Shown here: piece by piece, positions 1-48,021 of the stretch
Numbering within the stretch: the stretch's first letter is position 1
Layout: the number at the start of each line of letters is the position of its first letter
Source of the DNA: an uncultured Candidatus Berkelbacteria bacterium
Lineage (GTDB): Bacteria > Patescibacteriota > UBA1384 > XYA2-FULL-43-10 > CAINNR01
Reading direction: 5' to 3'
DNA length: 64,000 nucleotides
Assembly (NCBI GenBank): GCA_903851235.1
Contig: CAINNR010000032.1
Coordinates: 25-64,024, forward strand
The notes under the pieces: model-generated
What the model was told of the DNA's origin: nothing
What the model saw: the letters and a program-made list of their open reading frames with translations, nothing else
Database searches by the model: none
Made by a program: the position numbers and the translations under genes

Positions 1-2121
1 AGCGGTTCCGCTTGCTCCCTCAGTTGTTCCACCGGAGCAGAATCCACCTATACAAAGCGGATTGTGAAAACAAAATGACCCAATGCAAATAGTTGGAGGA
101 ATCGGTTTACAACTGTCACCAGTGCAAGCTTTGCAATTATCACCGACACAAATTTTACAGATGTTTGGGTCAGTGCATTTGCAAGCTTCACCAATGCAAA
201 CACATTTATCGCCGGTGCATTGGCAAGCGTCTCCGACGCAAGGCTTGCAGGCATCACCAGAGCAAGGTTTGCAACTTTCACCGGTGCAAATTTGGCAACT
301 ATCCGGATTACTGCAAGCGCACTCCGGTCCGCTGCATTGGCATTTATCACCAGTGCAGGCGCAATCACTACCAATACAAACCGGTGAACAACTTGAGCCG
401 GTGCAAACCGGTGGTGTTGGCGGCGTTATCGGTGGGACAACCGGTGGTGTTGGCGGACAGGCTGAACAGCCCAAAGTACCACAATGATTCAAACAATATG
501 CTGGTGGAAAAACCCAGGCAACGGTCACCGTGGCTGAAACGCTTTTACCACAGGAACTGGCAGTTACGGTGTATATTCCGGGCAACGCCGGAGCAACAAA
601 CCTGGCAGTGTCATTACCATTATCAACAATCGTTCCACCAGAAGCCGACCAAGCAATTGTCGCATTTGTAATTCTTGTTCCGTCATTGGCGTACAATTTA
701 GCGGAAAAAGTTGTGCCGGAGTTTGGCGTTAGATAAATACTGGAGGGTGAAATTGTTAAATGATTGGCGCTGGCACAAACATCCGGTGGGGTTGGTGGAA
801 CAACCGGTGGGGTTGGTGGTGTGACCGGACATGCGGAACAACTGCCGCCACAGTCTACACCGGTCTCGCTACCATTTTGAATCCTATCAGAACAGGTTGG
901 AGGCGTTGGTGGACAAGCCGGACAACTTCCGCCACAATCAACACCGGTCTCAGAACCATTCTGGATCCCATCACTACAAGTTGGCGGCGTTGGTGGACAA
1001 GCCGGACAACTTCCGCCACAGTCAACACCGGTCTCAGAACCATTCTGGATCCCATCACTACAAGTTGGCGGCGTTGGTGGACAAGCCGGACAACTTCCGC
1101 CACAATCGACTCCAGTTTCATCTTGGTTTTGAATCCCGTCAGAACAGGTGGCAGGTGGAGAATTGTTTGTGGTGTAGTAAACTGTGTAACTGAGTATTGC
1201 GGGGCTTGCGATACCGTCAGCAGTGCTCAAAGTTGAACGCACTTGTAGATATCGATGGCTAGCATCAGCATTTAAACTACTCAAATCTAGTGCGGTACCG
1301 GAATAATCTTGCGGCCCAGTCCATGAAGACCAATTTGTATTTCCGTCGCCACTTCGAAACTCATAAGTGTTGGTGGTGTTGGCGTTACCACTGTTTTGGT
1401 TATGGTCTATTTCATATGGTGAAAAGTTGTCCCAAGAAGTCAGGTCTACAGTTCCATCAATTTGTGTTGGGGCAGAGACGTGGGTACCGATTGTGCCACC
1501 TGAAGCCTGAATTTCAAAAAGTTGATCCATATAATTATATGAATCACCAAAAACAGTGCCGGTAAATCTTAAATATCGTGCGTTAACTGCTGCAAAATCA
1601 AATGTCCACCAAGGAGGTGAGACAATACCAGATCCACCGGCTTGACCACGCTCTGTATAAACGACACCGTCTTCAGAAGTGTAATCATATAATTGTCCTG
1701 ATGTGACATTTATATAATTTTTTATTTCGCTTATTTGGAAGACCTGACCAAGGTCCATTGTCCATGTTATTGTTCCTGAATGAACTGGGCCAATGCCATA
1801 TGGTGTCGAGACGTCTCCATCAATTGCCAGTTCAGGGTTTGGCCAATCGCCAACAAGTCTTGAGGGGTCTTGTTGATATATCGACCATAGGTCAATGTGT
1901 GTGGCAACGGGATCAATTGTAATAGTTCCATTATTAGTTATCACGTCGCTTTTAGTACCTGCATCCCAATCGGCCTGAGTAGTAAGTGTCGTTGAGTTTG
2001 AGGCTGCTTTTATTTCTTTGTTTGGATTAATCCGATTGTATGAAACAAAATAAAAAAGTGCCAAAAAAACAACAACCACAAAAACTACCAACACGTTTTT
2101 TGAAAGTAAAGCCCTCTTCAT
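1..2121 (-). CDS. Secreted/cell-surface protein, 5'-partial (continues past the left edge). It has an N-terminal signal/TM segment, an F5/8 type C (discoidin)-like domain, four 28-aa CGGSCxxC repeats and a long Cys-rich tail.
   Basis: My own minus-strand translation from ATG at 2121 (MKRALLSKNVLVVFVVVVFLALFYF...) stays open to position 1 with no stops. The track misses it because it runs off the edge. The motif '...DGDVSTPYGIG...ITWTMDLGQVFQISEIK...ARYLRFTGT' resembles discoidin domains. The unit TCSDGIQNGSETGVDCGGSCPACPPTPP repeats four times, followed by a CxxC-rich tail. Confidence 0.75.
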   Translation of the reverse strand, partial: MKRALLSKNVLVVFVVVVFLALFYFVSYNRINPNKEIKAASNSTTLTTQADWDAGTKSDVITNNGTITIDPVATHIDLWSIYQQDPSRLVGDWPNPELAIDGDVSTPYGIGPVHSGTITWTMDLGQVFQISEIKNYINVTSGQLYDYTSEDGVVYTERGQAGGSGIVSPPWWTFDFAAVNARYLRFTGTVFGDSYNYMDQLFEIQASGGTIGTHVSAPTQIDGTVDLTSWDNFSPYEIDHNQNSGNANTTNTYEFRSGDGNTNWSSWTGPQDYSGTALDLSSLNADASHRYLQVRSTLSTADGIASPAILSYTVYYTTNNSPPATCSDGIQNQDETGVDCGGSCPACPPTPPTCSDGIQNGSETGVDCGGSCPACPPTPPTCSDGIQNGSETGVDCGGSCPACPPTPPTCSDRIQNGSETGVDCGGSCSACPVTPPTPPVVPPTPPDVCASANHLTISPSSIYLTPNSGTTFSAKLYANDGTRITNATIAWSASGGTIVDNGNDTARFVAPALPGIYTVTASSCGKSVSATVTVAWVFPPAYCLNHCGTLGCSACPPTPPVVPPITPPTPPVCTGSSCSPVCIGSDCACTGDKCQCSGPECACSNPDSCQICTGESCKPCSGDACKPCVGDACQCTGDKCVCIGEACKCTDPNICKICVGDNCKACTGDSCKPIPPTICIGSFCFHNPLCIGGFCSGGTTEGASGTA
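812..1147. repeat. Four tandem copies of an 84-bp coding repeat; the two central copies are near-identical.
   Basis: ccggacaacttccgccaca...ggatcccatcactacaagttggcggcgttggtggacaag recurs with an 84-nt period at ~896, 980 and 1064, with a diverged copy at ~812. It encodes the 28-aa repeat of the minus-strand protein. Confidence 0.8.
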
Positions 2122-2224
2122 AATCAATTTTTTATTACTAATATAAGTATAACAAAATTCAAGATCAACCGCTACTTTGTAAAAATAGAATTAAAAAAGG
2201 GCTCTCTCGTGAGAGCCCAAATGT

Positions 2225-3223
2225 TCAACCGATCACCCTGATCGGTACTACTCCCTGTGGAGCGAATGGTAGCTCCTTAACAGGGATTATTGTGTAGAGC
2301 CAAGGGCCGGGACCCGCCACAAGTTGGATGGTTGGGGTGGCGGTTACGATTGTTTCGACCTGACCGACTCGCAACTTTACTCCGGGTCGAACGGTCTGCC
2401 TAACATCACCGTCGACCAAGAGTTGTTTTTTCCCAAAACGTGACATTTTGGACGTTTCCTTCAATTCCGCCTGAGTCTTCTCGGCCTTGGCAGAAGAGAT
2501 TGTCCATGTCCCGTTTTCGTTCGTTGCGATGACAGTGCCTTGCCCCGCCGGGATGGCGGTACCGAGCATGGAAAACACAGGAGTCTGTTGGCTTGGAGTC
2601 CAGACCTGTACGGTGCCATTACTGGCAGTCACAGCCCAGCTCTGGTACAAGTACTTGTCTCTAGGCGCGAATTCCAGCTCTAACCGATTCTCGAACCGTC
2701 CGCTGGTGGCAAGTGACCGCCACATGCGTTTTGGCGACCAGATGTCGTTCGCACGGCCGGCGACTTCGGCGTAGGGAATTACCACTTGACGCCATTCGTC
2801 TTTGTTGTCGGCGCCGAAAGTGGAATCCATACTGTGATCGGTGTTATCGCCACGGACGATGAGACCGTCGTGGCGAACCTCGGCAACGCGTTTGACTGCC
2901 CAGCCGAGAGTCTGCCCTCGGAGGGCAACCAGGTCGTTGACCCGAAGTTGCTTCGCCGGATCGGTGAGCCGTTCCATGTGGAAGTTGCCACCGATCAGTG
3001 GCAGTGTTGGCTGCATCGACGGTCCAAAGACGGGGTGGTAACCCCAGATCATCGGGATCGTTGCAAACAACCCGAGGGCAACCATTCCTCCCAGGATCAG
3101 GAATGCCAGCCACATTACGATGCGGCCGACGATGTGGGCCGACAAGTCGGCCTGCCACCATGGAACCGTCGTTCGGACAGGTCGACGCAGAACTTCGGTT
3201 CCGGCGTGTGCAAAGATAGCCAT
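2225..3223 (-). CDS. Signal peptidase I (S26 family)-like membrane protein with a long C-terminal extension. Strongly GC-rich compared with its surroundings.
   Basis: 332-aa ORF. The motifs 'GPSMQPTL' (catalytic Ser box) and 'DGLIVRGDNTDHSMDS' are typical of LepB-like peptidases, and there is a TM helix near the N-terminus. GC is visibly higher than in the flanking DNA. Confidence 0.65.
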   Translation of the reverse strand: MAIFAHAGTEVLRRPVRTTVPWWQADLSAHIVGRIVMWLAFLILGGMVALGLFATIPMIWGYHPVFGPSMQPTLPLIGGNFHMERLTDPAKQLRVNDLVALRGQTLGWAVKRVAEVRHDGLIVRGDNTDHSMDSTFGADNKDEWRQVVIPYAEVAGRANDIWSPKRMWRSLATSGRFENRLELEFAPRDKYLYQSWAVTASNGTVQVWTPSQQTPVFSMLGTAIPAGQGTVIATNENGTWTISSAKAEKTQAELKETSKMSRFGKKQLLVDGDVRQTVRPGVKLRVGQVETIVTATPTIQLVAGPGPWLYTIIPVKELPFAPQGVVPIRVIG

Positions 3224-3308
3224 CAGAAACAGCCTCCGTGCCCGTGTTGGGCGGGTTTTGTGTTTGGAAAAGTGCGGTTTTGATAACGCCTGCGCATTTG
3301 CGCGGGTG

Positions 3309-3356
3309 CTACCTAACCCAAGGATTTTCGGTTTTTAGGCTGAAAACTGCTTGGAT
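3309..3356. repeat. Direct repeat copy 1 (48 bp, identical to 4170-4217).
   Basis: ctacctaacccaaggattttcggtttttaggctgaaaactgcttggat. It is followed by a second, diverged similar block (...tagcatacttttaaaaaaaagtcaatgagt). Confidence 0.85.
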
Positions 3357-3404
3357 TAAGTACAAATCGTTACGCTTGCATTATAGCATACTTTTAAAAA
3401 AAAG

Positions 3405-3947
3405 TCAATGAGTTTTCTCTTGAATTTTCTTCACCATCTTAATACTGTAGTCTCTGAAATCATTTTTTAAATAAAAGTTGATGGCATTTTTATTAAATGC
3501 GTGGACGAGAACAATTAAATTATTAATTCCTTTTTTCTTTGCCCAATTCTGAGTATTTTCTATTAACATTGTCCCAACGCCCTGGCGGGAAAAATCTTTC
3601 GAAACCGACATTTCTTCAACTGAAACACGATTATAGGGGTGAGTCCAATCGTCTCCGTCATCTTTTTCTATAATTGCATAAAGTATGCCGACAACTTTTT
3701 CATCAATTTCGGCAACTAAAAGAAGAGCGTTTTTGTCCTCTGTAATATTTAGAAATGTTCCTTTTGGAAGTGTTGGGATTGGCGGATTTTTGTAATCATT
3801 GGAAATGTTTTTGCTGTAAAGCTTATAATTTTGTTGATATAAAAAATCAACAGATTGAAAATCTGTTTCAACTGCTTTTCTGATTTTGATATTTTCTATT
3901 GTCATTTTATTGTATTGTTCTGCCGGTGGACGCTTTAAGGCGTCCAC
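3405..3947 (-). CDS. GNAT family N-acetyltransferase.
   Basis: 'RQGVGTMLIENTQNWAKKKG' matches the acetyl-CoA binding motif A. The first 14 annotated codons overlap a perfect hairpin, so the true start may be the internal Met at ~3905 (MTIENIK...). Confidence 0.7.
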   Translation of the reverse strand: MDALKRPPAEQYNKMTIENIKIRKAVETDFQSVDFLYQQNYKLYSKNISNDYKNPPIPTLPKGTFLNITEDKNALLLVAEIDEKVVGILYAIIEKDDGDDWTHPYNRVSVEEMSVSKDFSRQGVGTMLIENTQNWAKKKGINNLIVLVHAFNKNAINFYLKNDFRDYSIKMVKKIQEKTH

Positions 3948-4169
3948 CGGCAGACTGATGTTCTCCGCCTCTACTTCTTGAACTTTTCCGGTTTGTAGCT
4001 CTCCTTCGTCGGGCCGGGCTTATTCCCGGGACCCCTCGGCACCTTGGTCTGGTGCTTGTCGCGGGTGCTTTTGGGGTTGCCTGTCGACTGCTTCTTCCGA
4101 TCGTGAGTCATGTTCGACACAACCTTTCTTGACGTCTGCGACAGGTCGGTTGGTGCTCGGAAGCGATCC

Positions 4170-4217
4170 TACCTAACCCAAGGATTTTCGGTTTTTAGGC
4201 TGAAAACTGCTTGGATC
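4170..4217. repeat. Direct repeat copy 2 (48 bp, identical to 3309-3356).
   Basis: Same 48-mer, followed by a diverged similar block (...tagcacacttcttgcaaaaagtcaatgagt). GC-rich DNA abuts the left side of both copies. Confidence 0.85.
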
Positions 4218-4493
4218 AGGCTTAAATCATTAACTCCTCCAGTATAGCACACTTCTTGCAAAAAGTCAATGAGTCTGTATATATTTTTATCGCTCTGACA
4301 TTTTTTCTATTACTATTATATCAAATCCCCTACAGATTATCCCTTTGATCCATTAGTAAATAGTAATAGAGCAAAGGAGTAAATCGTAAAGCGGGCAAAA
4401 ATTATAAAAAAAATGAAAAAAACGGGAATTACCGAGTCAAGTAGTTAGAACAGGTAACTTTAGTCGGGGTGTTGCATGATTCATAAGTTCTCC

Positions 4494-4527
4494 GGGGATT
4501 CGAGACGATCGACTCCCCTTTTTTTAT
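4494..4527 (+). terminator. Putative intrinsic terminator (hairpin plus T-run) in a non-coding stretch upstream of yebC.
   Basis: ggggattcgagacgatcgactcccc followed by ttttttt. No upstream ORF was identified. Confidence 0.3.
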
Positions 4528-37337: not shown

Positions 37338-37413
37338 GGGGTCGTAGTGTAGTGGTTATCACGTCTCCCTGTCACGGAGAAGATCGCCGGTTCGAGTCCG
37401 GTCGACCCCGCCA
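37338..37413 (+). tRNA. tRNA-Asp (anticodon GTC). It marks the left boundary of the cassette array.
   Basis: Acceptor ggggtcg/cgacccc, anticodon stem-loop tctcc-ctGTCac-ggaga, T-arm ccggt-tcgagtc-cggt, discriminator g, CCA. A TTGAAT-17-TAAAGT promoter lies upstream. Confidence 0.85.
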
Positions 37414-37476
37414 TTAAAATTAGTCGCTATCAGAGCGTCTTTTTTTGTATCAGGCAGACCGGATGCAGAACTTTTG
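37411..37476 (+). repeat. Boundary element E0: the tRNA-Asp 3' end, its downstream hairpin, T-tract and the right inverted repeat. This is the template that every later boundary element copies.
   Basis: ccattaaaattagtcgctatcagagcgtctttttttgtatcaggcagaccggatgcagaacttttg. Confidence 0.75.
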
Positions 37477-37525
37477 TATTTCTGAATACTAATCAGGTTT
37501 CATTTTATTGCATTGATCTCTAAGT

Positions 37526-38245
37526 TTGGATATTATTGAGGTTATGATAGATGGAATAAAACAGAAATTACTAGATATAAGCCAACCTTGCCCAGAGCGA
37601 GACCGCGTTTTTGTTCTGAAATATTTGGGTACCAACAAAGAATATCTGAACATACCGGCGCCAGCCAGAGATAAAATTATTTCAAAGGTTATTGTCGAAA
37701 CTTCCGATCTTCCGCCAGAAAAGATTATCGAAATTCTAGATGAATTATTTAGTTCCGGGATTTATGACTACATAAATTTTGCGGGAAAATTTCTTTCAAA
37801 AAATAAAACCATTCGCAATTTTATCTCCCTTGATCAGCTTGAAAGTTGGATTGCGCAAACAAAGGGTTGGGCCGAGTGTGATAGTATATGTCAGTCTATG
37901 TTTGGCGGGGTTGAAGTATTAGACCGTTGGAAAGAATGGGCGAGAGCTATCAAAGAGTTTTCCAGTAGCGACAATATTCAAATTCGCAGAGCAAGTCTAG
38001 TTCTGCAAACTCGACCAGCCAGAGAAGTTACTGACTTAAATTTCAGACGGTTGGCATTTATAACCATTGAAAAATTGATGGATGAAAGGGATATTTTAAT
38101 TACTAAAGCAATATCCTGGCTCTTACGAGACCTTTCTATCAAAAACAAAACTGAAGTTAGAAAATTTTTGAAAACAAATCAATCAGTTCTTCCAGCGATT
38201 GCATACCGAGAAACAATGAAGAAGATTGAAACGGGGAAAAAGTAG
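37526..38245 (+). CDS. Cassette 1: DNA alkylation repair enzyme-like (AlkD/AlkC HEAT-like repeat family). Tentative.
   Basis: 239-aa all-helical ORF. Its length and the C-terminal 'ISWLLRDLS...REAMK'-like pattern fit pfam DNA_alkylation. Confidence 0.45.
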   Translation: MDIIEVMIDGIKQKLLDISQPCPERDRVFVLKYLGTNKEYLNIPAPARDKIISKVIVETSDLPPEKIIEILDELFSSGIYDYINFAGKFLSKNKTIRNFISLDQLESWIAQTKGWAECDSICQSMFGGVEVLDRWKEWARAIKEFSSSDNIQIRRASLVLQTRPAREVTDLNFRRLAFITIEKLMDERDILITKAISWLLRDLSIKNKTEVRKFLKTNQSVLPAIAYRETMKKIETGKK

Positions 38246-38273
38246 CGATAACAAAAAACGGCTAGCAATTGAT

Positions 38274-38370
38274 CAAAAAAGTTCTAACATCGTTCGCTAT
38301 TTCCCGCCAGCAAACCGAATGATGTTAGAACTATTCGGTTTAATCGCTCTAGAAGCGATTTTTTTGTTGT
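38274..38370 (+). repeat. Boundary element E1: perfect 11-bp inverted repeats, a tRNA-3' mimic and a terminator.
   Basis: caaaaaaGTTCTAACATC-gttcgctatttcccgcca-...GATGTTAGAAC, then aatcgctctagaagcgattttttt. Confidence 0.8.
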
Positions 38371-38426
38371 GCGCCAGGGCTGAAATAAACTAACTAAACA
38401 TAGAGTTTCAAACAGTCATCGACATA

Positions 38427-38455
38427 TTGACATTTATTAATTAATATGATATTAT
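38427..38455 (+). promoter_or_regulatory. Consensus promoter of cassette 2; leaderless mRNA.
   Basis: TTGACA, 17 nt, TATTAT, with the ATG at 38463 seven nt after the -10. Confidence 0.6.
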
Positions 38456-38462
38456 GCTCATA

Positions 38463-38723
38463 ATGACCACTCAGAAGGAGACTGACATGACACTGCTTGA
38501 GTTCGTGAAGATGTTGGGGACGATCATGATCCGTGCGATCTTTGACGTTGTCCGGCCTCTCTCGCCGATCATCGGCGCGTTGGCCTTGATTGGGTTCGTC
38601 GTCGAGATCGTCCGGCACCATAGTACATCGTGGGAGCTTGCGCTGTCAGCGTTAGCCCTTGGCGCCATGGCTTACCTGACGCGGCGGCCTGAGCTGCGCG
38701 GGTACACAATGTTCCCGAATTGA
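38463..38723 (+). CDS. Cassette 2: small GC-rich membrane protein, hypothetical.
   Basis: MTTQKETDMTLLEF..., two predicted TM helices. Terminator at 38782-38826. Confidence 0.5.
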   Translation: MTTQKETDMTLLEFVKMLGTIMIRAIFDVVRPLSPIIGALALIGFVVEIVRHHSTSWELALSALALGAMAYLTRRPELRGYTMFPN

Positions 38724-38830
38724 CCGCGCCCCCGCTAGGGCAGGTCACAAACCCATCCCCAATACTCTTCAGTTGCGGGGAAGGACCAGAGCAATCAAAA
38801 CATTGATTTTTCTGGTCCTTTTTTAAATCA

Positions 38831-38931
38831 CAATAGTTCTAACGTCATTCGCTATCTCCCGCCATTTAAATTAGTCGCTCTTATAGCGTCTATTTTTTGT
38901 TACGGCAGACCGAATGTAGAACTTTTTATTG
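38831..38931 (+). repeat. Boundary element E2.
   Basis: caatagttctaac...cgctatctcccgccattt...agtcgctcttatagcgtctattttttgttacggcagaccgaatgtagaacttttt. Confidence 0.8.
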
Positions 38932-38982
38932 AGTGTTAACTTTCGAATTAGAATTTTTAACGGTGATGTATCTGAAATCCAG

Positions 38983-39011
38983 TTGACAAACATATTAAAA
39001 GTTGATTATAT
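38983..39011 (+). promoter_or_regulatory. Consensus promoter of cassette 3; leaderless mRNA.
   Basis: TTGACA, 17 nt, TTATAT, with the ATG six nt downstream. Confidence 0.55.
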
Positions 39012-39017
39012 AAGCGT

Positions 39018-39710
39018 ATGCAAGAAAAAGTCTCCAAAATAAAAAAATATTACGACAATCCTGATCAATATCTGGCGGAACATAAGGATTTTTTTTCTAT
39101 CCATAATCCCGAAAAAGATGTGGATTTTTTAATAAAAGTATTGGAAATTGAAAAAAGCGATAATATTCTTGACATAACTTGCGGTCAGGGACGACACACG
39201 ACTGAACTAGCAAAAAGAGGTTATACAGTAAGTGGTGTTGATTTTTCTTCTTCTCTTATTGACGAAGCAAAACAAATAGCTATCGATGCTAATATTAAAT
39301 CACAGTATTATATCCAGAATATCGAGTCACTTAAGTTACCATCAAAGTTTGATATGGCATATTGGTTTTTCTCTGATTTTGCCAACATTGACCTTGCATC
39401 GGCAATAAAATCTATTTCTAATCAGCTCAATCCCGGCGCTAGAGTCCTATTCGATTCAGATAGTCTTTTCCGAATTGTAAGTCATTTGCAAAATAATCCG
39501 GACTCTCCATACAAATTTGACCCAAAGTTACTTCAGTTAATAGACAATTCTCTCGGTCTTAGCATCCCTTATCCAACTTTCCTTATGTGGCAAGATTGGT
39601 TGAACAAAAATGAACTTGAGATTATTAATGTTTGGGGAAATTACGATCTCTCATCTTATGATATTAAAAGTCCTCGTCTGATCATTTTAGCTAATAAAAA
39701 AGCTGCTTAA
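39018..39710 (+). CDS. Cassette 3: class I SAM-dependent methyltransferase.
   Basis: Motif I 'ILDITCGQGRHTTELAKRGYTVSGVDFS'. Confidence 0.75.
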   Translation: MQEKVSKIKKYYDNPDQYLAEHKDFFSIHNPEKDVDFLIKVLEIEKSDNILDITCGQGRHTTELAKRGYTVSGVDFSSSLIDEAKQIAIDANIKSQYYIQNIESLKLPSKFDMAYWFFSDFANIDLASAIKSISNQLNPGARVLFDSDSLFRIVSHLQNNPDSPYKFDPKLLQLIDNSLGLSIPYPTFLMWQDWLNKNELEIINVWGNYDLSSYDIKSPRLIILANKKAA

Positions 39711-39744
39711 GTCAGAATCGACCTAAACAGCTTGTAGTTCTCCG

Positions 39745-41175
39745 CTATGCCGAGGTGGCATGGGAATTGATCGTGTCATAGAGATTGTCGACCTTGCACT
39801 TGAAGAGGCCGGGGTCCTCTGTTAGTATCCACATCAGCTCAAGTACAGAGTCATGGATCTCCTCGCACTTGAAATGAGGCGAACGCAGGTCTCTCGTGGT
39901 CTGATAGTTCTCTCCTCGACAGTTGCCGGCACAGATATACCTGATATCGCAAGCCGCGCATTTTGGATTCATACTATCGATGTTCAGACTGCGAAGATCC
40001 GTCAGAATGGGGGATCCCTTCCAGATCTCAGCCAAACTATCGGTTTTCAGATTGCCCAGGCAGAAATCGGGGACCGCAGTATCGGCGCATGGGTACAGTG
40101 TGCCGTCCGGTTTAACGTAAACCGCTCGATTCGTACCGATTCCACAGCCGAAGCTTTTGACGCCTCCTGCGATTCCCATCACTTGGTTTGCGAAGGTCGA
40201 GTACATCATCAACTGCTGAAGTCGCTGATCATCTCGTATTGCTTCGAAAACCTTCCGGTAGAAATCCGCCAAAGGGACAGCAACGAGTTGTTGCTTCGTT
40301 TCGGCGCTGTTGCCTCGGCCTACATTCATCATGTTTAAACAGTTAAGGCCTTGGACTCCAAGAGAATCGACCAACTTGAGTGTTGGTCGGACCTCATCGA
40401 TATTGCCTGCGTGAATAAACATGTTGACGGCAACTGAGATCCCTGCGTCGCACAGTGCCTTGATGTTGTTGACTGTTGTAGTGAATGTTCCCTCTCCACG
40501 GATGTATTCGTGGCTCTCAGCCCGACATCCGTCAAGGGAAATCGACATTTTCAGCCGGGGATATTTCGCCAGTTGTTTGATATCTGCTGGCGCCAACAGA
40601 GTCGCATTGGTGTTCACTTGAGCGAAATAGCCATGGTTGTGAACATATTCAATCAGATCCATGGCATCGGGGCGGGTAAACAGCTCACCGCCGGTTAGGG
40701 CAACGCGCGATATGCCGTTTTCCCAGGGCATACTCGAAAGTTGATCGATAACTGCTTTGATTTCGACAGAAGTCATCTCGCCGGGGATCTTCTCTTTGGC
40801 CATGGCATAACACATTGCGCATTCCATGTTGCAGAGTTGAGTTGTGGCGATAACCAAGACATTTTCGACTTCATTGACTTGGAAATCCGGCTTATTCTCT
40901 TCGACATCAACCTTCTCACCATCTACTACCAGCACTCCAGCGGAGTGCAGCAGATCGATAGTTTCAGCGACGATGTCGCCAGCCTCCTCTGCTGAGAGTC
41001 CCAATTGGGTTCTGATCTTAGTGACAGCCACATCAGAGTTTCCACAAGCCAACGACTCAAGGATGAGGGCAATCTCCGCCGTTGCAGAGAACCAGTAGGG
41101 TGCTGAGGGAAAGATCACGACTGCTGATTCTTCCCTGAAATAGACCGATGGTTTTTCGGTGAATGCCAACTGCAT
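39745..41175 (-). CDS. Cassette 4: radical SAM enzyme with a C-terminal SPASM domain and a ~110-aa N-terminal extension (a possible RiPP recognition element). Likely a peptide-modifying maturase. GC-rich.
   Basis: 'CNMECAMC' (CxxxCxxC) and C-terminal 'CAACDIRYICAGNCRGENY'. RBS GGGAGA lies before ATG at 41175. Confidence 0.8.
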   Translation of the reverse strand: MQLAFTEKPSVYFREESAVVIFPSAPYWFSATAEIALILESLACGNSDVAVTKIRTQLGLSAEEAGDIVAETIDLLHSAGVLVVDGEKVDVEENKPDFQVNEVENVLVIATTQLCNMECAMCYAMAKEKIPGEMTSVEIKAVIDQLSSMPWENGISRVALTGGELFTRPDAMDLIEYVHNHGYFAQVNTNATLLAPADIKQLAKYPRLKMSISLDGCRAESHEYIRGEGTFTTTVNNIKALCDAGISVAVNMFIHAGNIDEVRPTLKLVDSLGVQGLNCLNMMNVGRGNSAETKQQLVAVPLADFYRKVFEAIRDDQRLQQLMMYSTFANQVMGIAGGVKSFGCGIGTNRAVYVKPDGTLYPCADTAVPDFCLGNLKTDSLAEIWKGSPILTDLRSLNIDSMNPKCAACDIRYICAGNCRGENYQTTRDLRSPHFKCEEIHDSVLELMWILTEDPGLFKCKVDNLYDTINSHATSA

Positions 41176-41198
41176 TTCGGTCTCCCTTCAAAAAAGAT

Positions 41199-41226
41199 CA
41201 GTGAGGCGCGCTCGCGCGCCTCACTG
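41199..41226 (-). terminator. Attenuator/terminator hairpin between the precursor peptide gene and the maturase.
   Basis: Perfect 12-bp stem cagtgaggcgcg-cgag-cgcgcctcactg followed by a U-tract on the minus strand. Confidence 0.6.
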
Positions 41227-41239
41227 TTGTTACGTGGAG

Positions 41240-41332
41240 CTACTGGCCCCGGTAGTACATCGTCCCTTGTGACTCCTTAGTCAAGACGACGATACGACGA
41301 TTGCCACGGTTCAAAATCCGAAACTTCCGCAT
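41240..41332 (-). CDS. 30-aa candidate RiPP precursor peptide (MRKFRILNRGNRRIVVLTKESQGTMYYRGQ). It is not in the supplied ORF track.
   Basis: A strong SD (AGGAGGagcgtcATG) and a TTGACA promoter on the minus strand at ~41408. It lies directly upstream of the radical-SAM/SPASM gene and is separated from it by an attenuator hairpin. Confidence 0.55.
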   Translation of the reverse strand: MRKFRILNRGNRRIVVLTKESQGTMYYRGQ

Positions 41333-41478
41333 GACGCTCCTCCTGTCAGATGGTGTAAGCTGTCGAAACAGCTTCACTATTATTATTAACATACTTTTTT
41401 TACTTTTGTCAACAGCATCGAGTAAATCTGATAACTTTATGAGGATATTTTTATTAATTTTTATGCTAAAATTTGATT

Positions 41479-42153
41479 ATGAATTGGAAAATTTATAAAA
41501 CACAACATTATACTTTTCACTACTTCTCAGGAACTTTGGCAGAAAAGGAAATTGAGAAAATAGCGGATGAACAGGAAGCGTTTTATCGTCATATTTTGTC
41601 GTAACTAAATTTGAAAAATGAGCGTACCATAAACTATTTTTTATATCCAGCGAATCAACTAAAGGGTGAAATAATGGGCGATGATGGTAATGGCAATACT
41701 AATCGAGAAAAATTTGAAGTCTACGCTGTCTACAATGAAAATATAAAATGTATTGGTGCGCATGAAGATACTCATCTCCTATCTCTTCCATTGGGATTGG
41801 CAACTAAACTATTTCGAGAAGGCCTGGCAGAGTTTATGAGTAAAGAATGACATGGAAAAACTCATGATTTTTGGGCTAAAAAATTTCTGAGTGAAAAAAA
41901 GATTCCTGGACTAGCGAAAATTTTAGATGATAAAGAGGGGGATAAAATCAGCGACTTAATTTCTTATCCTTGCGCCGGCTCTTTTTACATATTTTTAATA
42001 TCTAAAATTGGTAAAGGTATTTTTTTAAAACTTTATGGAGCCCTAGACCGAAATATAAATGTTGAAATAAACTTAGTAACAATTAAAGATATCACAAGTA
42101 AATCTTTAGACCAGTGGCAAAAAGAATGGGCAGAAAAAGTGTTGTACCAGTAA
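41479..42153 (+). pseudogene. Cassette 5: decayed gene. One continuous frame is interrupted by TAA (41602-41604) and TGA (41848-41850).
   Basis: My translation reads MNWKIYKTQHYTFHYFSGTLAEKEIEKIADEQEAFYRHILS*LNLKNERTINYF...AEFMSKE*HGKTHDFWAKKF...KVLYQ* in a single frame. No boundary element separates it from cassette 4. Confidence 0.5.
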
Positions 42154-42200
42154 AATATCTGCCTCTTGTTCATCAACTAGTCCAACCTTAGGGAGCCATA

Positions 42201-42297
42201 CAAAAAGTTCTAACTTCCCCCGCTGTGTTCCGCCATTGAAAAAGTCTCTCTGGAAGAGATTATTTTTGTATACGGCAGACTGGATATAGAACTTTTG
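42201..42297 (+). repeat. Boundary element E5.
   Basis: caaaaagttctaacttcccccgctgtgttccgccattgaaaaagtctctctggaagagattatttttgtatacggcagactggatatagaacttttg. Confidence 0.8.
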
Positions 42298-42414
42298 TTT
42301 TTAAACGTAAAACTTCGGATTGGATTTGAAACGAAATGTATGGGCTATTGTCCAAGAGGTCGTCATCATGTACAGATGTTTGACAAAACTGTTGATTGCC
42401 AATAGACTTAGACT

Positions 42415-42756
42415 ATGAAAACAATCGAAGACAAAATAAGTATCAAAGATTTGCAGGAGATGGCAGAAAAGATGTTCGGCAATTTGGTTAAAGCGGTAAT
42501 TGACATAGAGAAAGAGGCGATGGTCGTTGACGCCGAGCTTTATTCAGACGAGGAAGCGGTTCTAATTGAAAACGGATCAAAACAAAAAGATCTTTGGGGA
42601 ATAAATATCTATCCAAATTTACCCAAAGCCGACCAAATTGAATTTGATTCAATGATTAATTTGCGACCAAAACAGAACAACAGAAGCCGGAGTGTTGATG
42701 ATCCAAAAATCAGAGAAATAATACTAAAAATTTGTGATAAATTAATCAAACAATGA
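42415..42756 (+). CDS. Cassette 6a: hypothetical protein, first gene of a two-gene cassette; leaderless.
   Basis: 113 aa. TTGACA-17-TAGACT promoter with the ATG six nt after the -10. Confidence 0.5.
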   Translation: MKTIEDKISIKDLQEMAEKMFGNLVKAVIDIEKEAMVVDAELYSDEEAVLIENGSKQKDLWGINIYPNLPKADQIEFDSMINLRPKQNNRSRSVDDPKIREIILKICDKLIKQ

Positions 42757-43082
42757 CATATGAACATCAAAATTTGGCCGAAGGCAAGTGGAATAAAATT
42801 CCATTTTTTGAGCAGATGGCTAATATCGGAAGTGAGGTTTTTCGCACAATCAGTTGGAAGAAAAAAAACATTGATTATTCAAATAAAGCTTTTGACAGAA
42901 CTCTCGAACTACTGGATATGACGATTGAAGATTCTAAAAATCGAGGACGACTAAAAGAATTAGTTCGTTTGCGTGAAGTCCTGACCGATTATTTTGTCTT
43001 TGACAATGAGTACAAATCAAATGATGAATTATGGCAGAAGTATTTTTACGCGTTCAATTATGTCGCTAGAATAAATTGTTAG
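42753..43082 (+). CDS. Cassette 6b: hypothetical protein, start overlapping 6a (ATGA).
   Basis: 109 aa, translationally coupled to 6a. Confidence 0.5.
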   Translation: MTYEHQNLAEGKWNKIPFFEQMANIGSEVFRTISWKKKNIDYSNKAFDRTLELLDMTIEDSKNRGRLKELVRLREVLTDYFVFDNEYKSNDELWQKYFYAFNYVARINC

Positions 43083-43083
43083 A

Positions 43084-43150
43084 CAAAAAGTTCTAAATTT
43101 AATCGGCGCTCTAAATCTCCGCCAATGAAAAAGTTAGTCCAGTGCTAGTT
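43084..43150 (+). repeat. Degenerate boundary element E6 (left half only).
   Basis: aaaaagttctaaatt...cgctctaaatctccgccaatgaaaaagttagtccagtgctagttttttt. Confidence 0.5.
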
Positions 43151-43216
43151 TTTTTGCGTACTAAAATAGTATATTCTAATTATCTTTTAGCAAATTGTCC
43201 CTGTCCAAAGTGGTAT

Positions 43217-43888
43217 TGTAGATATATGAAATTATTTTTATCACTAGCTCTGATTGCTTTGCTAACAATAGCTGTCTATTTTTGTTTAACCAAAAAACCT
43301 AGCGATAAAAAATACAATAATATATCCAGAAAAAAAGCTATTATGATATCCGCAACAATATGCATTATTCTGGTTGGAACACTGGCTTATTTAATGTATA
43401 AATCGGCGACAGCTCCAGATATGCAATGTACTACAGTTCACACAACTTCACTGATGCCACCAAAGTCTCTGGCTAGTGCTATGGATTATTACCTTCAGGG
43501 CAATTATGATTATGAAACCGGAAATTGTCAGAAAGCGATTGTTAATTTTAATGCCTCAATTCAACTTGATCCGAATTATCCACAAGCATATAACAACCGG
43601 GCATACACTTTTATGCGAATGCAAAATTATAAAGACGCATTATCAGATCTAGACAAAGCCATTGCCCTCAATCCAAATTATATCAACGCCTTAATGAACA
43701 GGGGCGACATTCACAATTATTACTATGCGATTGATCGCAAAAGCTCGACTGAGGACTACGAAAAAGTAATTTCCCTGGGCGGTGAAAAAGATACAAGCGT
43801 GTGTGGACATCTACTTTTGGCGAAACATGATGGCTGGAATTTGGGCACTCTTTTAGCTCTTCACCAAACTTTGTACAGTTGCAATTAA
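43217..43888 (+). CDS. Cassette 7: membrane-anchored TPR-repeat protein.
   Basis: N-terminal TM (MKLFLSLALIALLTIAVYF), then tandem TPRs (AIVNFNASIQLDPNYPQAYNNRAYTFMRMQNYKDALSDLDKAIALNPNYINALMNRG). Confidence 0.65.
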   Translation, partial: CRYMKLFLSLALIALLTIAVYFCLTKKPSDKKYNNISRKKAIMISATICIILVGTLAYLMYKSATAPDMQCTTVHTTSLMPPKSLASAMDYYLQGNYDYETGNCQKAIVNFNASIQLDPNYPQAYNNRAYTFMRMQNYKDALSDLDKAIALNPNYINALMNRGDIHNYYYAIDRKSSTEDYEKVISLGGEKDTSVCGHLLLAKHDGWNLGTLLALHQTLYSCN

Positions 43889-43911
43889 CTTGTGCACTCA
43901 TCATAAAATAA

Positions 43912-44060
43912 ACTGGTTCTGACATCATCCGCTATACCTCGCCATTTTGCCCGGGTCTAGCGGAGGGCGTTAGAACCGGAGGAATAATCGCTTTCAGAGC
44001 GGTTATTTTTGTTTTTACAAGTACAAAATTATTTCACAAAATAGATGTTAGAACTAAAAA
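43912..44060 (+). repeat. Boundary element E7: an extended form with two right-IR copies.
   Basis: ggttctgacatcatccgctatacctcgccatttt...gcgttagaacc...aatcgctttcagagcggttattttt...atagatgttagaact. Confidence 0.7.
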
Positions 44061-44094
44061 AGTGTTTCCGAGCTCTTGAATCATTGCGCGGCTG

Positions 44095-44123
44095 TTGACA
44101 TGTGAATGTATTTATGATAAACT
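44095..44123 (+). promoter_or_regulatory. Promoter of cassette 8.
   Basis: TTGACA, 17 nt, TAAACT. Confidence 0.45.
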
Positions 44124-44161
44124 AATTGAAGTTTTCACCAACCCAGAAAGAGTGATGCCAC

Positions 44162-44503
44162 ATGATGTTGCTCCAGATTGTCGGCATGCCAAAGGACGCA
44201 CCCGAACTGGATTGCCTGAGGAAGAGGATAGCTGAGACAATGGCCCCTGTTCTTGAACAGGATCTGCTGGTTACCTTCGTGTGCGACATGGAACCAGTTG
44301 AGGTATGCGCTGGACTGTTGTTCAGACTGGAGCCATTTGGTGAAATGACACAAAAGCTCGAGCAAGATGCTGCCGGTCTGTCGGAGCCTCTTGGTGAGCT
44401 TATCCAGGGGTATGCCAAGCAACATGGACATCAGTTCTGTTGTCCGTTCGAGATCACATATGTTCATCCCAAGACTCAGTATGTTTTGGGGGTGAATGGG
44501 TGA
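44162..44503 (+). CDS. Cassette 8: GC-rich hypothetical protein (a weak MIF/tautomerase-like N-terminal pattern).
   Basis: 113 aa. GC content clearly above the host. A terminator gcccc-ttgatc-ggggc-ctttttt follows. Confidence 0.45.
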   Translation: MMLLQIVGMPKDAPELDCLRKRIAETMAPVLEQDLLVTFVCDMEPVEVCAGLLFRLEPFGEMTQKLEQDAAGLSEPLGELIQGYAKQHGHQFCCPFEITYVHPKTQYVLGVNG

Positions 44504-44574
44504 CCAGTCACCAATTCTGCTTCTTTCACACTCGCCCCTTGATCGGGGCCTTTTTTAATTCAAATTTCCATTAC

Positions 44575-44672
44575 CAGAGTTCTATCATTGTTCGCTATTT
44601 CTCGCCATTGAAAATAGTCGCTTCCAGAGCGTCTGTTTTGCATCCGGCAGACCGGACGTAGAGCTTTTTTTA
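44575..44672 (+). repeat. Boundary element E8.
   Basis: cagagttctatcattgttcgctatttctcgccattgaaaatagtcgcttccagagcgtctgttttgcatccggcagaccggacgtagagcttttttt. Confidence 0.8.
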
Positions 44673-44709
44673 AATGTAAAGCTTCGAATTAGAATTTTTC
44701 ACAGCAGTA

Positions 44710-44738
44710 TTGACTTTTGAGTCTGAATATGATATTAT
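44710..44738 (+). promoter_or_regulatory. Promoter of cassette 9, followed by a ~185-nt structured leader.
   Basis: TTGACT, 17 nt, TATTAT. The leader contains several hairpins and a strong SD (aaGGAGGcgtttaggATG). Confidence 0.5.
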
Positions 44739-44929
44739 ATAGTAATCTCAGAATAAGCTGATGGGTATCGAATTTCTGGCGTAAATTAAGACAAATATAG
44801 GCACGAGAGTCTTTAAAACTTGTTTTTTAGAGATTCTCCCGCCTGTATAGGCGGCTATCACATAGCTGGGGTACTTTCATCCTCTACCCCTGAAGCCTAG
44901 AGCTTAAAGCTACAAAGGAGGCGTTTAGG

Positions 44930-45460: not shown

Positions 45461-45498
45461 CAACAACAAGGAGGACGGACATCAGTTGTTCGTCTTCC

Positions 45499-45549
45499 CC
45501 CTCAACACATTAAGTGTTCTGATGAGTCGTTGAAATTACGACGAAAGGG
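45499..45549 (+). ncRNA. Hammerhead ribozyme (type III, open helix III), copy 1.
   Basis: CCCU-C|AACAC-auuaa-GUGUU-CUGAUGA-G-UCG-uugaaauua-CGA-C-GAAA-GGG. All core nucleotides are present. Helix I is a 5-bp hairpin, helix II is 4 bp closed by the conserved G10.1-C11.1 pair, and helix III is CCCU/AGGG. The predicted cleavage is after C at 45503. Confidence 0.75.
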
Positions 45550-45554
45550 ATAAA

Positions 45555-45653
45555 CAAAATAGTTCTAACTCCCTTCGCTATGCTCCGCCATTAAAAATAG
45601 TCGCTCTAGAAGCGATTATTTTTCTATGTGATAGACAGGATGTAAAACTTTTG
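45555..45653 (+). repeat. Boundary element E9.
   Basis: caaaatagttctaactcccttcgctatgctccgccattaaaaatagtcgctctagaagcgattatttttctatgtgatagacaggatgtaaaacttttg. Confidence 0.8.
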
Positions 45654-45685
45654 TATTCTTAAGCAATTAAAATATAATGTAACTA

Positions 45686-48017: not shown

Positions 48018-48021
48018 ATAA

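Follow-up and report, generated by a model that had tools for sequence, protein, structure and literature searches.

A stretch of 64,000 nucleotides from an uncultured Candidatus Berkelbacteria bacterium (hereafter, the window) contains two GC-rich blocks, each adjoining a copy of the same 48-mer, with an AT-rich gene of a GNAT acetyltransferase lying between the repeats. This arrangement raises the question of whether the repeats are the scar of an insertion that brought in the acetyltransferase gene or whether they have a function and an origin of their own. The compositional contrast described in the initial annotation was borne out when quantified: the GC content was 56.9% at 2225–3308 and 57.0% at 3955–4168 versus a window mean of 41.7%, and the AT-rich character of the GNAT segment (3405–3920, 31.6%) was likewise confirmed. 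The GC3 value of the large ORF in the first block, which encodes a protein similar to S26 signal peptidases, was 0.63, versus about 0.38–0.45 in the neighboring genes. In both blocks, the first base past the 48-mer was the onset of GC-rich DNA; at their other ends, the first block (unit A) stopped at a canonical terminator and the second (unit B) at a GC hairpin. The direct repeat itself proved to be exact (0 mismatches, n = 2), although its second copy is located at 4169–4216, one base off the position given earlier. No third copy was found in the 64-kb window with up to three mismatches or as half-sites (shuffled expectation 0), and the core of the 48-mer was absent from 185,579 species-representative genomes, from JGI metagenomes (two patterns) and from IMG/VR. 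Within the window and these genome, metagenome and viral collections, nothing suggests that the 48-mer is a widespread generic repeat.

The 48-mer is part of a longer repeat of ~105 bp (3309–3413 and 4169–4274), the copies of which were aligned with one indel at ~85% identity over 106 nt. Outside the 48-mer, the copies matched at 42 of 58 positions (72%), versus 48 of 48 inside it; at an identity of 72%, the chance of 48 consecutive identical bases is about 2 × 10−7, so this pattern is non-random. Each copy contains a predicted near-consensus sigma-70 promoter, and the two promoters were the best two matches in 2.8 kb. Each is followed by a leader predicted to fold into the same interrupted hairpin of roughly 22 bp (Table 1). 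The 5′ arms of the hairpins differed by three substitutions between modules A and B (A>G, U>C and A>G), and pairing was kept in all three. Since these transitions yield G-U or G-C pairs, a structure at the RNA level is favored, with the limit that three pairing-compatible changes would occur by chance with a probability of about 0.04–0.12 and that two copies give weak covariation support. The predicted hairpin begins about 11 nt past the predicted start site and is thus unlike a classical 5′-terminal stabilizer. At the Rfam gathering thresholds, nothing was found on the 48-mer or the hairpins, and at E-values up to 10, the overlaps with the 48-mer were at chance level (snoR12 on the minus strand, 25.5 bits, E-value = 0.075; Na+ riboswitch on the opposite strand, 18.8 bits versus a cut-off of 40.5, E-value = 0.73). 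Known cis-regulatory RNAs (riboswitch, ribosomal leader, ribozyme) were rejected as candidates for the 48-mer, as no curated covariance model was reached.

That the 48-mer has stayed identical, with the promoter part now at 72%, agrees with a transcribed leader under constraint or homogenization. On balance, the 48-mer is better regarded as the invariant core of a reused module consisting of a promoter and a leader hairpin than as an insertion scar. The earlier suggestion of an insertion or duplication was retained in part: the duplication is real and the GNAT gene resembles an insert, but the repeats do not read as its scar. The idea that the acetyltransferase gene is flanked by a target-site or att duplication was not upheld, because each repeat is a predicted sigma-70 promoter with a leader hairpin that heads a GC-rich unit. 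In length and in structure, the repeats also exceed what a target-site duplication would show, and no recombinase (integrase or transposase) and no reverse transcriptase was found among the about 50 window ORFs scanned.

Table 1. Predicted features of the two GC-rich units and their surroundings (window coordinates).
Feature	Position	Strand	Characteristics	Basis
Discoidin-domain partner gene	1..2121	−	N-terminal 706 codons in the window	Pfam
Intrinsic terminator of unit A	2199..2218	−	GGGCUCUC-ACGA-GAGAGCCC, then UUUUUU	Terminator scan, called by definition
GC-rich unit A	2225..3308	−	85-nt leader with GGAGG ribosome-binding site, then CDS	
S26 signal-peptidase-like membrane protein	CDS 3223..2225	−	332 aa	Motifs, weak profile matches, AF2 model
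Regulatory module A	3309..3413	−		Promoter scan, RNA fold, alignment to module B
Module A promoter	−35 at 3408–3403, −10 at 3385–3380	−	TTGACT, 17-nt spacer with TGn, TATAAT	Scan 11/12, extended −10
Module A leader stem-loop	about 3362–3310	−	Holds 48-mer 3356–3309	RNA fold −18.6 kcal/mol, z = −3.6
GNAT acetyltransferase gene	3405..3905	−	166 aa from ATG 3905, 32% GC	Pfam Acetyltransf_1
GC-rich hairpin	3921..3954	−	Perfect 14-bp stem, 6-nt loop	Sequence inspection
GC-rich body of unit B	3955..4168	−	57% GC, only 10% T on coding strand	
Lysine/proline-rich basic ORF	ATG 4111 to stop 3971	−	46 aa	Codon periodicity GC1/2/3 = 0.45/0.45/0.83
Regulatory module B	4169..4274	−		Promoter scan, alignment to module A, RNA fold
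Module B promoter	−35 at 4269–4264, −10 at 4246–4241	−	TTGACT, 17-nt spacer with TGn, TATACT	Scan 10/12, extended −10
Module B leader stem-loop	about 4221–4171	−	Holds 48-mer 4216–4169	RNA fold −20.6 kcal/mol, z = −4.0

The explanation that we favor, with modest confidence in it as a whole, is that of two tandem minus-strand transcription units, each headed by a paralogous ~105-bp promoter–leader module. Promoter A would serve the gene of the S26-like protease, a conserved upstream neighbor of a large discoidin-domain surface protein in Berkelbacteria-like bacteria of the candidate phyla radiation (CPR), and promoter B would serve the small GC3-rich basic ORF, probably reading through the U-less GC hairpin into the GNAT gene. 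With respect to origin, the head of the S26-like unit (promoter and leader) would have been duplicated in tandem, after which the upstream duplicate would have lost or swapped its cargo and the GNAT gene would have taken up the gap before promoter A. The identity of the 48-mer might then reflect a leader constrained by a shared trans-acting factor or by RNA structure, or else homogenized by gene conversion. An intact counterpart of such a duplication is present in the Berkelbacteria contig PEZW01000014 (locus L014), where two tandem S26-like paralogues of 57% GC lie behind duplicated promoter–leader modules. The promoter-plus-leader segments of this contig were 77% identical overall, with about 97–100% identity across the leader hairpin and codons 1–23, and at the end of the upstream paralogue lay a perfect GC hairpin that lacks a T run, resembling that at 3921–3954.

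The 46-aa basic ORF of unit B noted earlier does exist and has a strong codon periodicity; it had no homologue and no match in Pfam, NCBIfam, PHROG or PADLOC. Beyond the module, blastx, blastn and tblastx detected no resemblance of unit B to either unit A or the S26-like family, and a visible S26-like remnant was accordingly rejected; unit B may be a degraded S26-like paralogue by analogy with PEZW01000014, the one locus that suggests it. The perfect 14-bp hairpin was found where it had been described. It was not called in the terminator scan, as the next bases are AACAAUACAAUAAAA and contain no T run, and it is not an intrinsic terminator by the definition that requires a U-tract; it probably serves the small-ORF unit as a leaky terminator or as an RNA end or stability element. 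The GNAT protein passed the family threshold of Acetyltransf_1 (57.6 bits, cut-off 20.7, E-value = 1.9 × 10−15) and reached no specific NCBIfam equivalog; exact-protein look-ups gave no record for this protein or for the product of the small ORF. The annotated GNAT start that overlaps the hairpin (GTG 3947) is probably not real, whereas ATG 3905 suits the family model, residue 5 of the protein being aligned to position 6. The TGA stop of the gene sits within the −35 hexamer of promoter A, and the gene fills exactly the gap from the GC hairpin to this promoter. In view of this exact fit and of a junction in another sample (locus L004, see below), the GNAT gene has the appearance of a variable insert. 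The promoter scan detected no promoter of its own, so the gene is probably transcribed from promoter B by read-through of the hairpin.

The product of unit A is predicted from its sequence and model to be a divergent membrane protease of the type I signal peptidase kind with a Ser/Lys dyad. The S26 motifs GPSMQPTL (S69), VKRV (K111) and GDNTDHSMDS are present. In the family alignment, G67, P72, K111, R112, D126 and N127 were invariant across 24 relatives, S69 and M70 were conserved in at least 90%, and the PDB profile alignment to SpsB spanned all three S26 boxes. The scores were below the curated cut-offs (PF10502, 16.3 versus 22.9 bits; TIGR02227, 14.9 versus 47; TIGR02754, 16.9 versus 63), which indicates a remote S26 member or a sister family; the weak matches in Pfam, NCBIfam and PDB were all to signal peptidase I. 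The AF2 model had a pLDDT > 85 at residues 31–240, except 61–80 (about 80) and 121–130 (84), with a helix at 31–59, and a pLDDT < 40 at 251–332. The top Foldseek match of the model was SEC11A (7p2p_A, E-value = 9 × 10−4, probability 1.0), and SpsB was matched with a probability of 0.99 (rmsd 2.6–2.7 Å, 155 columns). Membership in S26 is supported at the level of motifs and predicted fold, the latter agreeing with the S26/S24 beta-fold and its N-terminal membrane anchor. Among 1.84 billion representatives, 47 relatives of the protein were found.

The partner gene downstream of unit A has a host-like GC content and 84-bp tandem repeats. Its product, which is complete on another contig (1062 aa, locus L001), is a surface protein with a membrane anchor, in which Pfam recognizes discoidin (F5/8 type C) and CarboxypepD_reg domains. 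A homologous partner was located 3′ of the S26-like gene in nine other loci (L009, L012, L013, L014, L018, L021, L022, L024 and L026). SipW of the Bacillus subtilis tapA–sipW–tasA operon and the nickel-SOD maturation protease SodX are dedicated S26 peptidases encoded beside their substrate. The pair studied here is similar in that the gene of a small membrane-anchored S26 Ser/Lys protease adjoins, in conserved order, that of a secreted or surface protein, and in its weak match to TIGR02754. It differs in that the S26-like family is very divergent, below the Pfam cut-off, apparently restricted to CPR, linked to its partner by synteny and provided with an extra hypervariable C-terminal part of about 130–170 aa. 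From this synteny, the S26-like protein may be the dedicated processing enzyme of the discoidin-domain partner, and the gene pair is a candidate for a dedicated module by which CPR bacteria secrete or process proteins of their cell surface.

A competing explanation, less probable than the reuse of a promoter–leader module and yet of some weight, is that a circular element of ~860 bp (48-mer, small ORF, GC hairpin, GNAT gene and promoter) was integrated into the promoter-hairpin of the S26-like unit. Integration would have proceeded by site-specific or Campbell-type homologous recombination in the hairpin, as proposed for the PeSL mini-circles of T4-type phages or for integron attC sites, and the 48-mers would be hybrid junctions. 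Direct repeats do bracket a unit of 860 bp, and their perfect identity is confined to 48 bp with diverged flanks and sharp edges, beyond which GC-rich DNA follows from the next base. In locus L004, a metagenome contig from another sample, the sequence changes to different DNA precisely where module A has its outer edge; the L001 contig stops precisely at the inner edge of the 48-mer (3356), which would be expected of variants that diverge from 3357 onward; and breaks between 3356 and 4079 occur in several independent assemblies. A recombination site would likewise give rise to such edges, such a junction and such a stop, and the 48-mer may have a Campbell-type or PeSL-like role in recombination. 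The window also holds a tRNA-Asp-linked array of repeat-bounded cassettes. Against integration, the about 50 window ORFs scanned include none for a recombining enzyme, no copy beyond the two was found in the window or in the collections searched, the S26-like gene keeps its synteny with the partner and is not a free cassette, and an empty site was seen in none of eight related contigs, of which none spans the whole unit. In PEZW01000014, the duplicated modules have a much shorter hairpin and an identity that extends into the coding sequence, which looks like tandem gene duplication.

The repeats share several traits with integron attC sites and CALINs, namely, an imperfect inverted repeat at the cassette border, a GTTRRRY end, cargo of deviant GC content and, as in CALINs, the absence of an adjacent integrase. 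The cargo-proximal end GTTAGGT fits the integron core GTTRRRY, but such a match has a chance of roughly 0.1 in 50 nt on two strands, and the partner box (ACTTAAT/GCCTGAT) does not fit RYYYAAC, agreeing at 5–6 of 7 positions. Moreover, there are two sites only, each inside a promoter–leader module, and the downstream "cassette" is a syntenic gene whose far end has no attC-like site. The differences between the hairpin arms lead to G-U pairs, which suit RNA rather than single-stranded DNA hairpins. In T4-type phages, PeSLs consist of a promoter and a stem-loop repeated between small genes, and gene shuffling and the release of mini-circles result from recombination between them (Arbiol et al. 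2010, PMC2839356; Comeau et al. 2014, PMC4122927); their stem-loops act as terminators, and phage hyperplastic regions contain many copies of them (PMC2839356; PMC4122927). The module is similar in joining a strong sigma-70-like promoter to a stem-loop, in its small and often orphan genes and in the structural variant at its edge, whereas it has two copies, lies on a bacterial chromosome and has its stem-loop downstream of the promoter, in the leader and without a U-tract.

A recent horizontal transfer, in which both GC-rich blocks came fresh from a GC-rich donor (bacterium, plasmid or phage) and were each captured behind a resident copy of the strong promoter, is improbable. The composition is what such a transfer would give (57% versus 42% GC, GC3 of 0.63–0.83, GARP/FYMINK ratio of 1.5 versus about 0.6–0.9 in host genes), the products of both units are orphan-like, and in locus L015 the S26-like gene directly follows tRNA-Asp, a classical integration site, with tandem partial duplicates. 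However, the S26-like gene occupies the same position before a homologous partner in GC-normal and GC-rich genomes alike. In eight independent AT-rich loci, the window included, it forms a sharp GC island of 57–65% (gene/surroundings: window 57/42, L014 57/40, L015 ~60/35, L018 63/44, L021 65/40, L022 60/42, L024 63/44 and L026 61/34–41), and the eight proteins are only about 45–55% identical. This divergence argues against one recent transfer, and many independent and precise replacements would be required. The domain identity to the S26-like protein of the window was 50–57% for the closest relatives and 42–54% for the genome loci, and the GC-rich members mostly formed one cluster in the neighbor-joining tree. 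Wherever the context of a family member was examined, the surrounding DNA was AT-rich, even for P0005, the member with the strongest GC bias, and close relatives in GTDB species representatives, searched for with a trimmed family alignment, were confined to CPR genomes. A phage or defense origin of the S26-like gene and the GC-rich ORFs was rejected, as PHROG and PADLOC gave no match and IMG/VR yielded a single weak relative (39% identity over 68 residues) and no close one. The likeness to a genomic island, in the sharp local GC excess and deviant codon usage, is limited in that the gene concerned keeps its synteny and its deviant composition in many diverged relatives and that a single gene or unit of about 1 kb without a mobility gene is concerned. 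The S26-like gene, initially described as foreign-looking, is thus not a recent import at this site, given its synteny and its GC richness in divergent relatives, and we infer that GC richness is an old, gene-specific trait of its lineage.

An assembly artefact, with chimeric GC-rich pieces of a GC-richer organism stitched through the shared 48-mer, is highly improbable: the join of the hairpin and unit B (3949–4007) is covered by the window's own contig alone and the assemblies of other samples fragment in the region, but four independent contigs from other samples contain module A, the S26-like gene and the partner at 99.3–100% identity (mismatches solely in the 84-bp repeats), three more link unit B, module B and YebC, independent assemblies of other samples confirm the link from the GNAT gene through module A to the partner, the assembly k-mers are longer than the 48-mer, and the GC-island layout recurs in eight unrelated loci.

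By the reasoning of amelioration, a GC island should fade with time, and its persistence points to a local bias that is still active, through recombination or gene conversion, to replacement that recurs from a hidden gene pool or to selection at the RNA level. A tentative and rather unlikely proposal is that a gene-specific process has held the S26-like gene at 57–65% GC over the long term in CPR genomes of 35–44% GC, with the 48-mer module as its upstream boundary, which would constitute a new compositionally insulated and exchangeable gene slot of ultra-small bacteria. The process might sometimes extend to the small gene just upstream and perhaps to other GC-rich orphan ORFs. The duplicated modules might mark a recombination hot spot with GC-biased gene conversion; alternatively, the module might be a landing pad for continual replacement out of an unseen pool of GC-rich mobile genes, or selection might favor A/U-poor mRNA. 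Two other causes were rejected: a conserved antisense or overlapping gene, since the long antisense open frames were inconsistent across homologues, and transcription-coupled strand-biased mutation, since the S26 coding strand had no A/T or G/C asymmetry; in L024, the GC content drops at the gene boundary within an overlapping (ATGA) gene pair, which also counts against the latter. It should be noted that this apparently CPR-restricted gene stands out as a sharp GC island in at least eight AT-rich genomes that have diverged from one another, whereas its conserved neighbor does not. If true, any of local bias, hidden-pool replacement or RNA-level selection would bear on the exchange and protection of surface-related genes in reduced symbiont genomes, and the persistence of the island by such processes would also matter for the common practice of taking GC deviation as a sign of recent transfer.

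Even if the duplicated promoter–leader module were all that holds, the locus would be a clean CPR example of the reuse of a regulatory module before unrelated genes, and it corrects a tempting misreading of direct repeats and deviant GC content as an insertion scar. Putative mobile promoters (PMPs) are upstream sequences of 50–100 nt with at least 80% identity that are reused before non-homologous genes of one genome (Matus-Garcia, Nijveen & van Passel 2012, PMC3488235). With at least 50 nt and 80% identity as the bounds, the module falls within this definition (106 aligned nt, about 85% identity, unrelated downstream sequences), preceding the S26-like gene in one copy and an unrelated small ORF in the other. 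PMPs are defined by sequence reuse only, whereas the module has in addition a predicted leader hairpin that is more conserved than the promoter; its two copies follow each other in tandem at a distance of 860 bp, and the cargo of each is a compositional outlier. Kinship of the module to the repeats of the tRNA-Asp array was also considered and rejected, the only likenesses being two unconvincing ones, namely, the octamer GTTCTAAC at 4444–4451 on the minus strand and a weak stretch resembling the 3′ part of tRNA-Asp at 4484–4521 on the plus strand.

On balance, the locus probably represents a duplicated promoter–leader module at the head of two units, including a conserved and persistently GC-rich signal-peptidase-like gene. 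The 48-mer CTACCTAACCCAAGGATTTTCGGTTTTTAGGCTGAAAACTGCTTGGAT was confirmed as a perfect repeat present twice in the window, the second coordinate of the initial annotation being off by one, and no further copy was found in the window at up to three mismatches, none being expected from shuffles. The similarity runs 57–58 bp past the 48-mer, giving repeats of approximately 105 bp (modules A and B, see the table); the extension is 72% identical (42/58), and the probability of 48 consecutive matches arising by chance at such identity is approximately 2 × 10−7. The GC anomaly described for the segment was borne out against a window mean of 41.7%, with 31.6% in the GNAT segment, as was the perfect 14-bp hairpin, and GC-rich DNA starts at the base directly 3' of each module.

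Features of the locus, the tRNA-Asp array and related loci (window coordinates unless a locus is named)
Feature	Position	Strand	Characteristics
Module A	3309-3413	minus	−10 TATAAT; promoter scan 11/12
Module B	4169-4274	minus	−10 TATACT; promoter scan 10/12
48-mer, copy A	3309-3356	minus	
48-mer, copy B	4169-4216	minus	
GC-rich block behind module A	2225-3308		56.9% GC
GC-rich block behind module B	3955-4168		57.0% GC
Hairpin	3921-3954		14 bp, perfect
S26-like ORF (unit A)	3223..2225	minus	332 aa; 85-nt leader with GGAGG ribosome-binding site
Canonical terminator (unit A)	2218-2199	minus	
Small ORF (unit B)	inside the 214-nt body	minus	46 aa, Lys/Pro-rich; GC1/2/3 = 0.45/0.45/0.83
Tandem repeats in partner gene	812-1147	minus	84-bp units
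Octamer	4444-4451	minus	GTTCTAAC
tRNA-Asp-like segment	4484-4521	plus	AAGTTCTCCGGGGATTCGAGACGATCGACTCCCCTTT
tRNA-Asp(GTC)	37338-37413	plus	
Cassette-like array	37338-50680	plus	~13 kb
Radical SAM/SPASM gene	39745-41175	minus	476 aa; 50% GC; GC3 0.57
Hammerhead-like motifs	45496-45552; 47964-48020; 48760-48816	plus	type III
Cassette terminators	46104-46140; 49297-49333	plus	CACCACCTAGC..(loop)..GGCTGGTGGTTTTTGTTTTA
Tandem duplication, L013	3485-3703		120 bp
Tandem units and tRNA-Asp, L015	3310-3635		two perfect 123-bp units
Prepilin-type gene, L024	234-464		76 aa
Prepilin-type gene, L025	951-1181		76 aa

Along the minus strand (5' to 3'), each module opens with ACTCA-TTGACT followed by a 17-nt spacer ending in TGn, and the two promoters were the top sigma-70 matches of the region in the promoter scan. 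Approximately 11–13 nt past the predicted start site lies a predicted stem-loop of about 50 nt that encloses the entire 48-mer (−18.6 and −20.6 kcal/mol, z = −3.6 and −4.0 for A and B, respectively), and no shuffled sequence folded equally well. Its 5' arm extends outside the perfect 48-mer, where three positions differ between the copies (A>G, U>C, A>G), all compatible with pairing to the invariant 3' arm via G-U or G-C; these three events would be a weak hint of structure at the RNA level. No match to the stem-loop or the 48-mer was found in Rfam, and a role as an attenuator was rejected because no U-tract follows the stem. By its operational definition (PMC3488235), the module is a putative mobile promoter, and it resembles the promoter-early stem-loop (PeSL) cassettes of T4-type phages (PMC2839356), but has a different copy number, a differently placed stem-loop and no terminator features. 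The duplication and GC anomaly proposed in the initial annotation stand, whereas a target-site or att duplication was rejected, since the repeats are full promoter–leader modules.

The GC-rich body of unit B, behind module B, comprises 214 nt with 57% GC and 10% T on the coding strand. The small ORF inside it looks like a real coding sequence from its GC1/2/3 values, and the homologue search found no relative; it is followed by the perfect GC hairpin, which has no T run, and then by the GNAT gene. The start of this gene, previously placed in the hairpin, is most plausibly ATG 3905, from which residue 5 aligns with position 6 of the family model, a GTG within the hairpin being less likely. The gene is probably transcribed from promoter B, because the promoter scan revealed none ahead of it on its own strand and its TGA stop falls within the −35 hexamer of promoter A.

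The S26-like protein of unit A carries the S26 boxes GPSMQPTL, VKRV and GDNxxxSxDS, and its profile matches in Pfam, NCBIfam and PDB were weak, every one being signal peptidase I. Among 1.84 billion representative proteins, 47 relatives were found; in their alignment, the catalytic Lys is present in all sequences and the catalytic Ser in at least 90%, with poor conservation past approximately residue 200. The AF2 model, confident over residues ~31–250 with an N-terminal membrane helix and the final ~80 residues unmodelled, resembles SEC11A and SpsB. Close relatives among species-representative genomes were confined to two Candidatus Berkelbacteria MAGs and one Saccharibacteria MAG, and a weaker match (35%) in an Alkalispirochaeta MAG has the appearance of a generic S26 peptidase. 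Judging from homologue matches, the other window genes (YebC, RuvABC, DnaK, MraW and many glycosyltransferases) point to the chromosome of a CPR-type bacterium.

A homologous partner gene lies 3' of the S26-like gene in the window and in related loci L009, L012, L013, L014, L018, L021, L022, L024 and L026. It encodes a membrane-anchored, discoidin-type protein with a conserved ..Q(A/P)DW(D/Q)xG.. motif shortly past the anchor (window versus L012 partner, blastp E = 6 × 10−20). By analogy with SipW/TasA, the two proteins may form a dedicated protease–substrate pair. The window partner contains 84-bp tandem repeats; contigs L001–L003 from other samples have one extra unit, and all 17 mismatches to the window lie within the repeat block, so the repeat copy number varies in the population. 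In another groundwater CPR locus, L024/L025, a prepilin-type (N_methyl) gene abuts the S26-like gene immediately upstream, within the same 65%-GC block, which hints that the peptidase–partner module is tied to a pilin-like system.

As regards the origin of the duplication, GC-rich S26-like paralogues occur as a tandem pair in locus L014 (PEZW01000014), and each is preceded by a promoter and a short hairpin leader ending in ...GGTGGGTTAGTAC, compared with ...CTTGGGTTAGGTAG in the window. The promoter-plus-leader copies of L014 are 77% identical overall and ~97–100% identical in the leader hairpin and first 23 codons, a pattern of identity shared with the window, and a perfect GC hairpin that lacks a T run closes the first paralogue; L014 likely shows the ancestral layout. 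In Berkelbacteria locus L013 (VMGK01000001), the tandem duplication lies upstream of the S26-like gene, and each unit has a hairpin (ATCTTTAACA...TGTTAAAGAT, then Ts); with it, upstream-module duplication is seen for the third time at a locus of this type. Since L014 shares the identity pattern and L013 has a tandem upstream duplication, the head of the S26-like unit would have been duplicated in tandem, with the upstream copy now carrying different cargo. Unit B may be a degraded S26-like paralogue; no residual similarity to the S26-like family was detected in it.

Alternatively, the 48-mer could act in cassette recombination, in a PeSL-like or Campbell-type role, which we consider possible but rather doubtful. 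Contig L004, which comes from another sample, matches the window with 100% identity between 3414 and 1131, but 57 unrelated nt adjoin its module A precisely at the outer edge, ACTCATTGAC. L001 stops precisely at 3356, where the 48-mer has its inner edge, and other assemblies break at 3436, 3948, 4008 and 4079. Moreover, position 4229 is G in three samples and A in the window, which turns TTAATGATT of copy B into TTAACGATT, the form of copy A. However, no recombinase was found among ~50 ORFs scanned, the 48-mer has only two copies, and no empty site was seen among eight related contigs, none of which spans the whole unit. An integron attC site would be a poor fit and is an unlikely assignment, the match of GTTAGGT to GTTRRRY being near chance level.

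Recent horizontal transfer is improbable. The GC content of the S26-like gene or unit, relative to its flanks or partner, was 57/42% in the window, 57/40% in L014, ~60/35% in L015, 63/44% in L018, 65/40% in L021, 60/42% in L022/L023, 63/44% in L024/L025, 61/34–41% in L026, 42/40% in L009, 42/41% in L012 and ~45/39% in L013. P0005, the S26-like member with the strongest GC bias, likewise sits in AT-rich DNA. The GC-rich proteins, most of which belong to one clade, share only ~45–55% identity, and a single recent import at the window site is unlikely because such diverged homologues are GC-rich within AT-rich loci. The GC island of the S26-like gene would be old and gene-specific. In L024, GC drops at the boundary between two genes overlapping by ATGA; therefore, the edge is a gene boundary and not merely the end of a transcription unit. 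The S26-like gene has no strand asymmetry, and no consistent antisense ORF was found across its homologues. That the GC-rich pieces are an assembly artefact is hardly credible.

Elsewhere in the window, tRNA-Asp(GTC) heads the cassette-like array, in which degenerate copies of the tRNA 3' end and ~70 nt of its downstream flank make up at least 13 intergenic modules (consensus ..AGTTCTAAC..CGCTAT..CCCGCCATTAAAAATAGTCGCT..GAGCG..TTTTT..GCAGACCGGATGTAGAACTTTT). The array genes, each served by a CTATTGACA-type promoter of its own, are heterogeneous in GC and include those for DNA-alkylation repair, methyltransferase, radical SAM/SPASM, DUF5674, TPR, flavodoxin and DUF1801 proteins and several GC-rich orphans. 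This arrangement resembles serial integration at the tRNA or an integron-like array; no integrase was found in it. The radical SAM/SPASM protein matches PADLOC prokaryotic viperin models (E = 2 × 10−17), which may reflect only the common radical-SAM core. Between module B and yebC, the tRNA-Asp-like segment is similar to the T-arm and acceptor end of tRNA-Asp, and a T run comes after it; the likeness is weak (local score 30), no tRNA was called there, and the nearby octamer is like an array-module start. The same tRNA species occurs in Saccharibacteria locus L015 (CAZLCL010000036; genome 35% GC), where the tandem units precede tRNA-Asp, each with its first 53 nt, and a promoter lies directly past it, followed by a 17-bp AT-rich leader hairpin and then the S26-like gene.

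Each hammerhead-ribozyme-like motif sits immediately 3' of a GC-rich orphan ORF, with an array module coming shortly after it, and has the full conserved core CUGAUGAG...CGAAA with predicted cleavage after CCCUC. Matches to RF00008 in Rfam span the full model (E = 5 × 10−6 to 1 × 10−3), with 32–41 bits being below the gathering score of 48.5. Hammerheads are known to flank single genes in prophages (PMC3088659), and a full-text literature search found no paper naming hammerhead ribozymes together with CPR. The terminators of two array cassettes are near-identical; therefore, 3' regulatory pieces, besides promoters, are reused in this genome.
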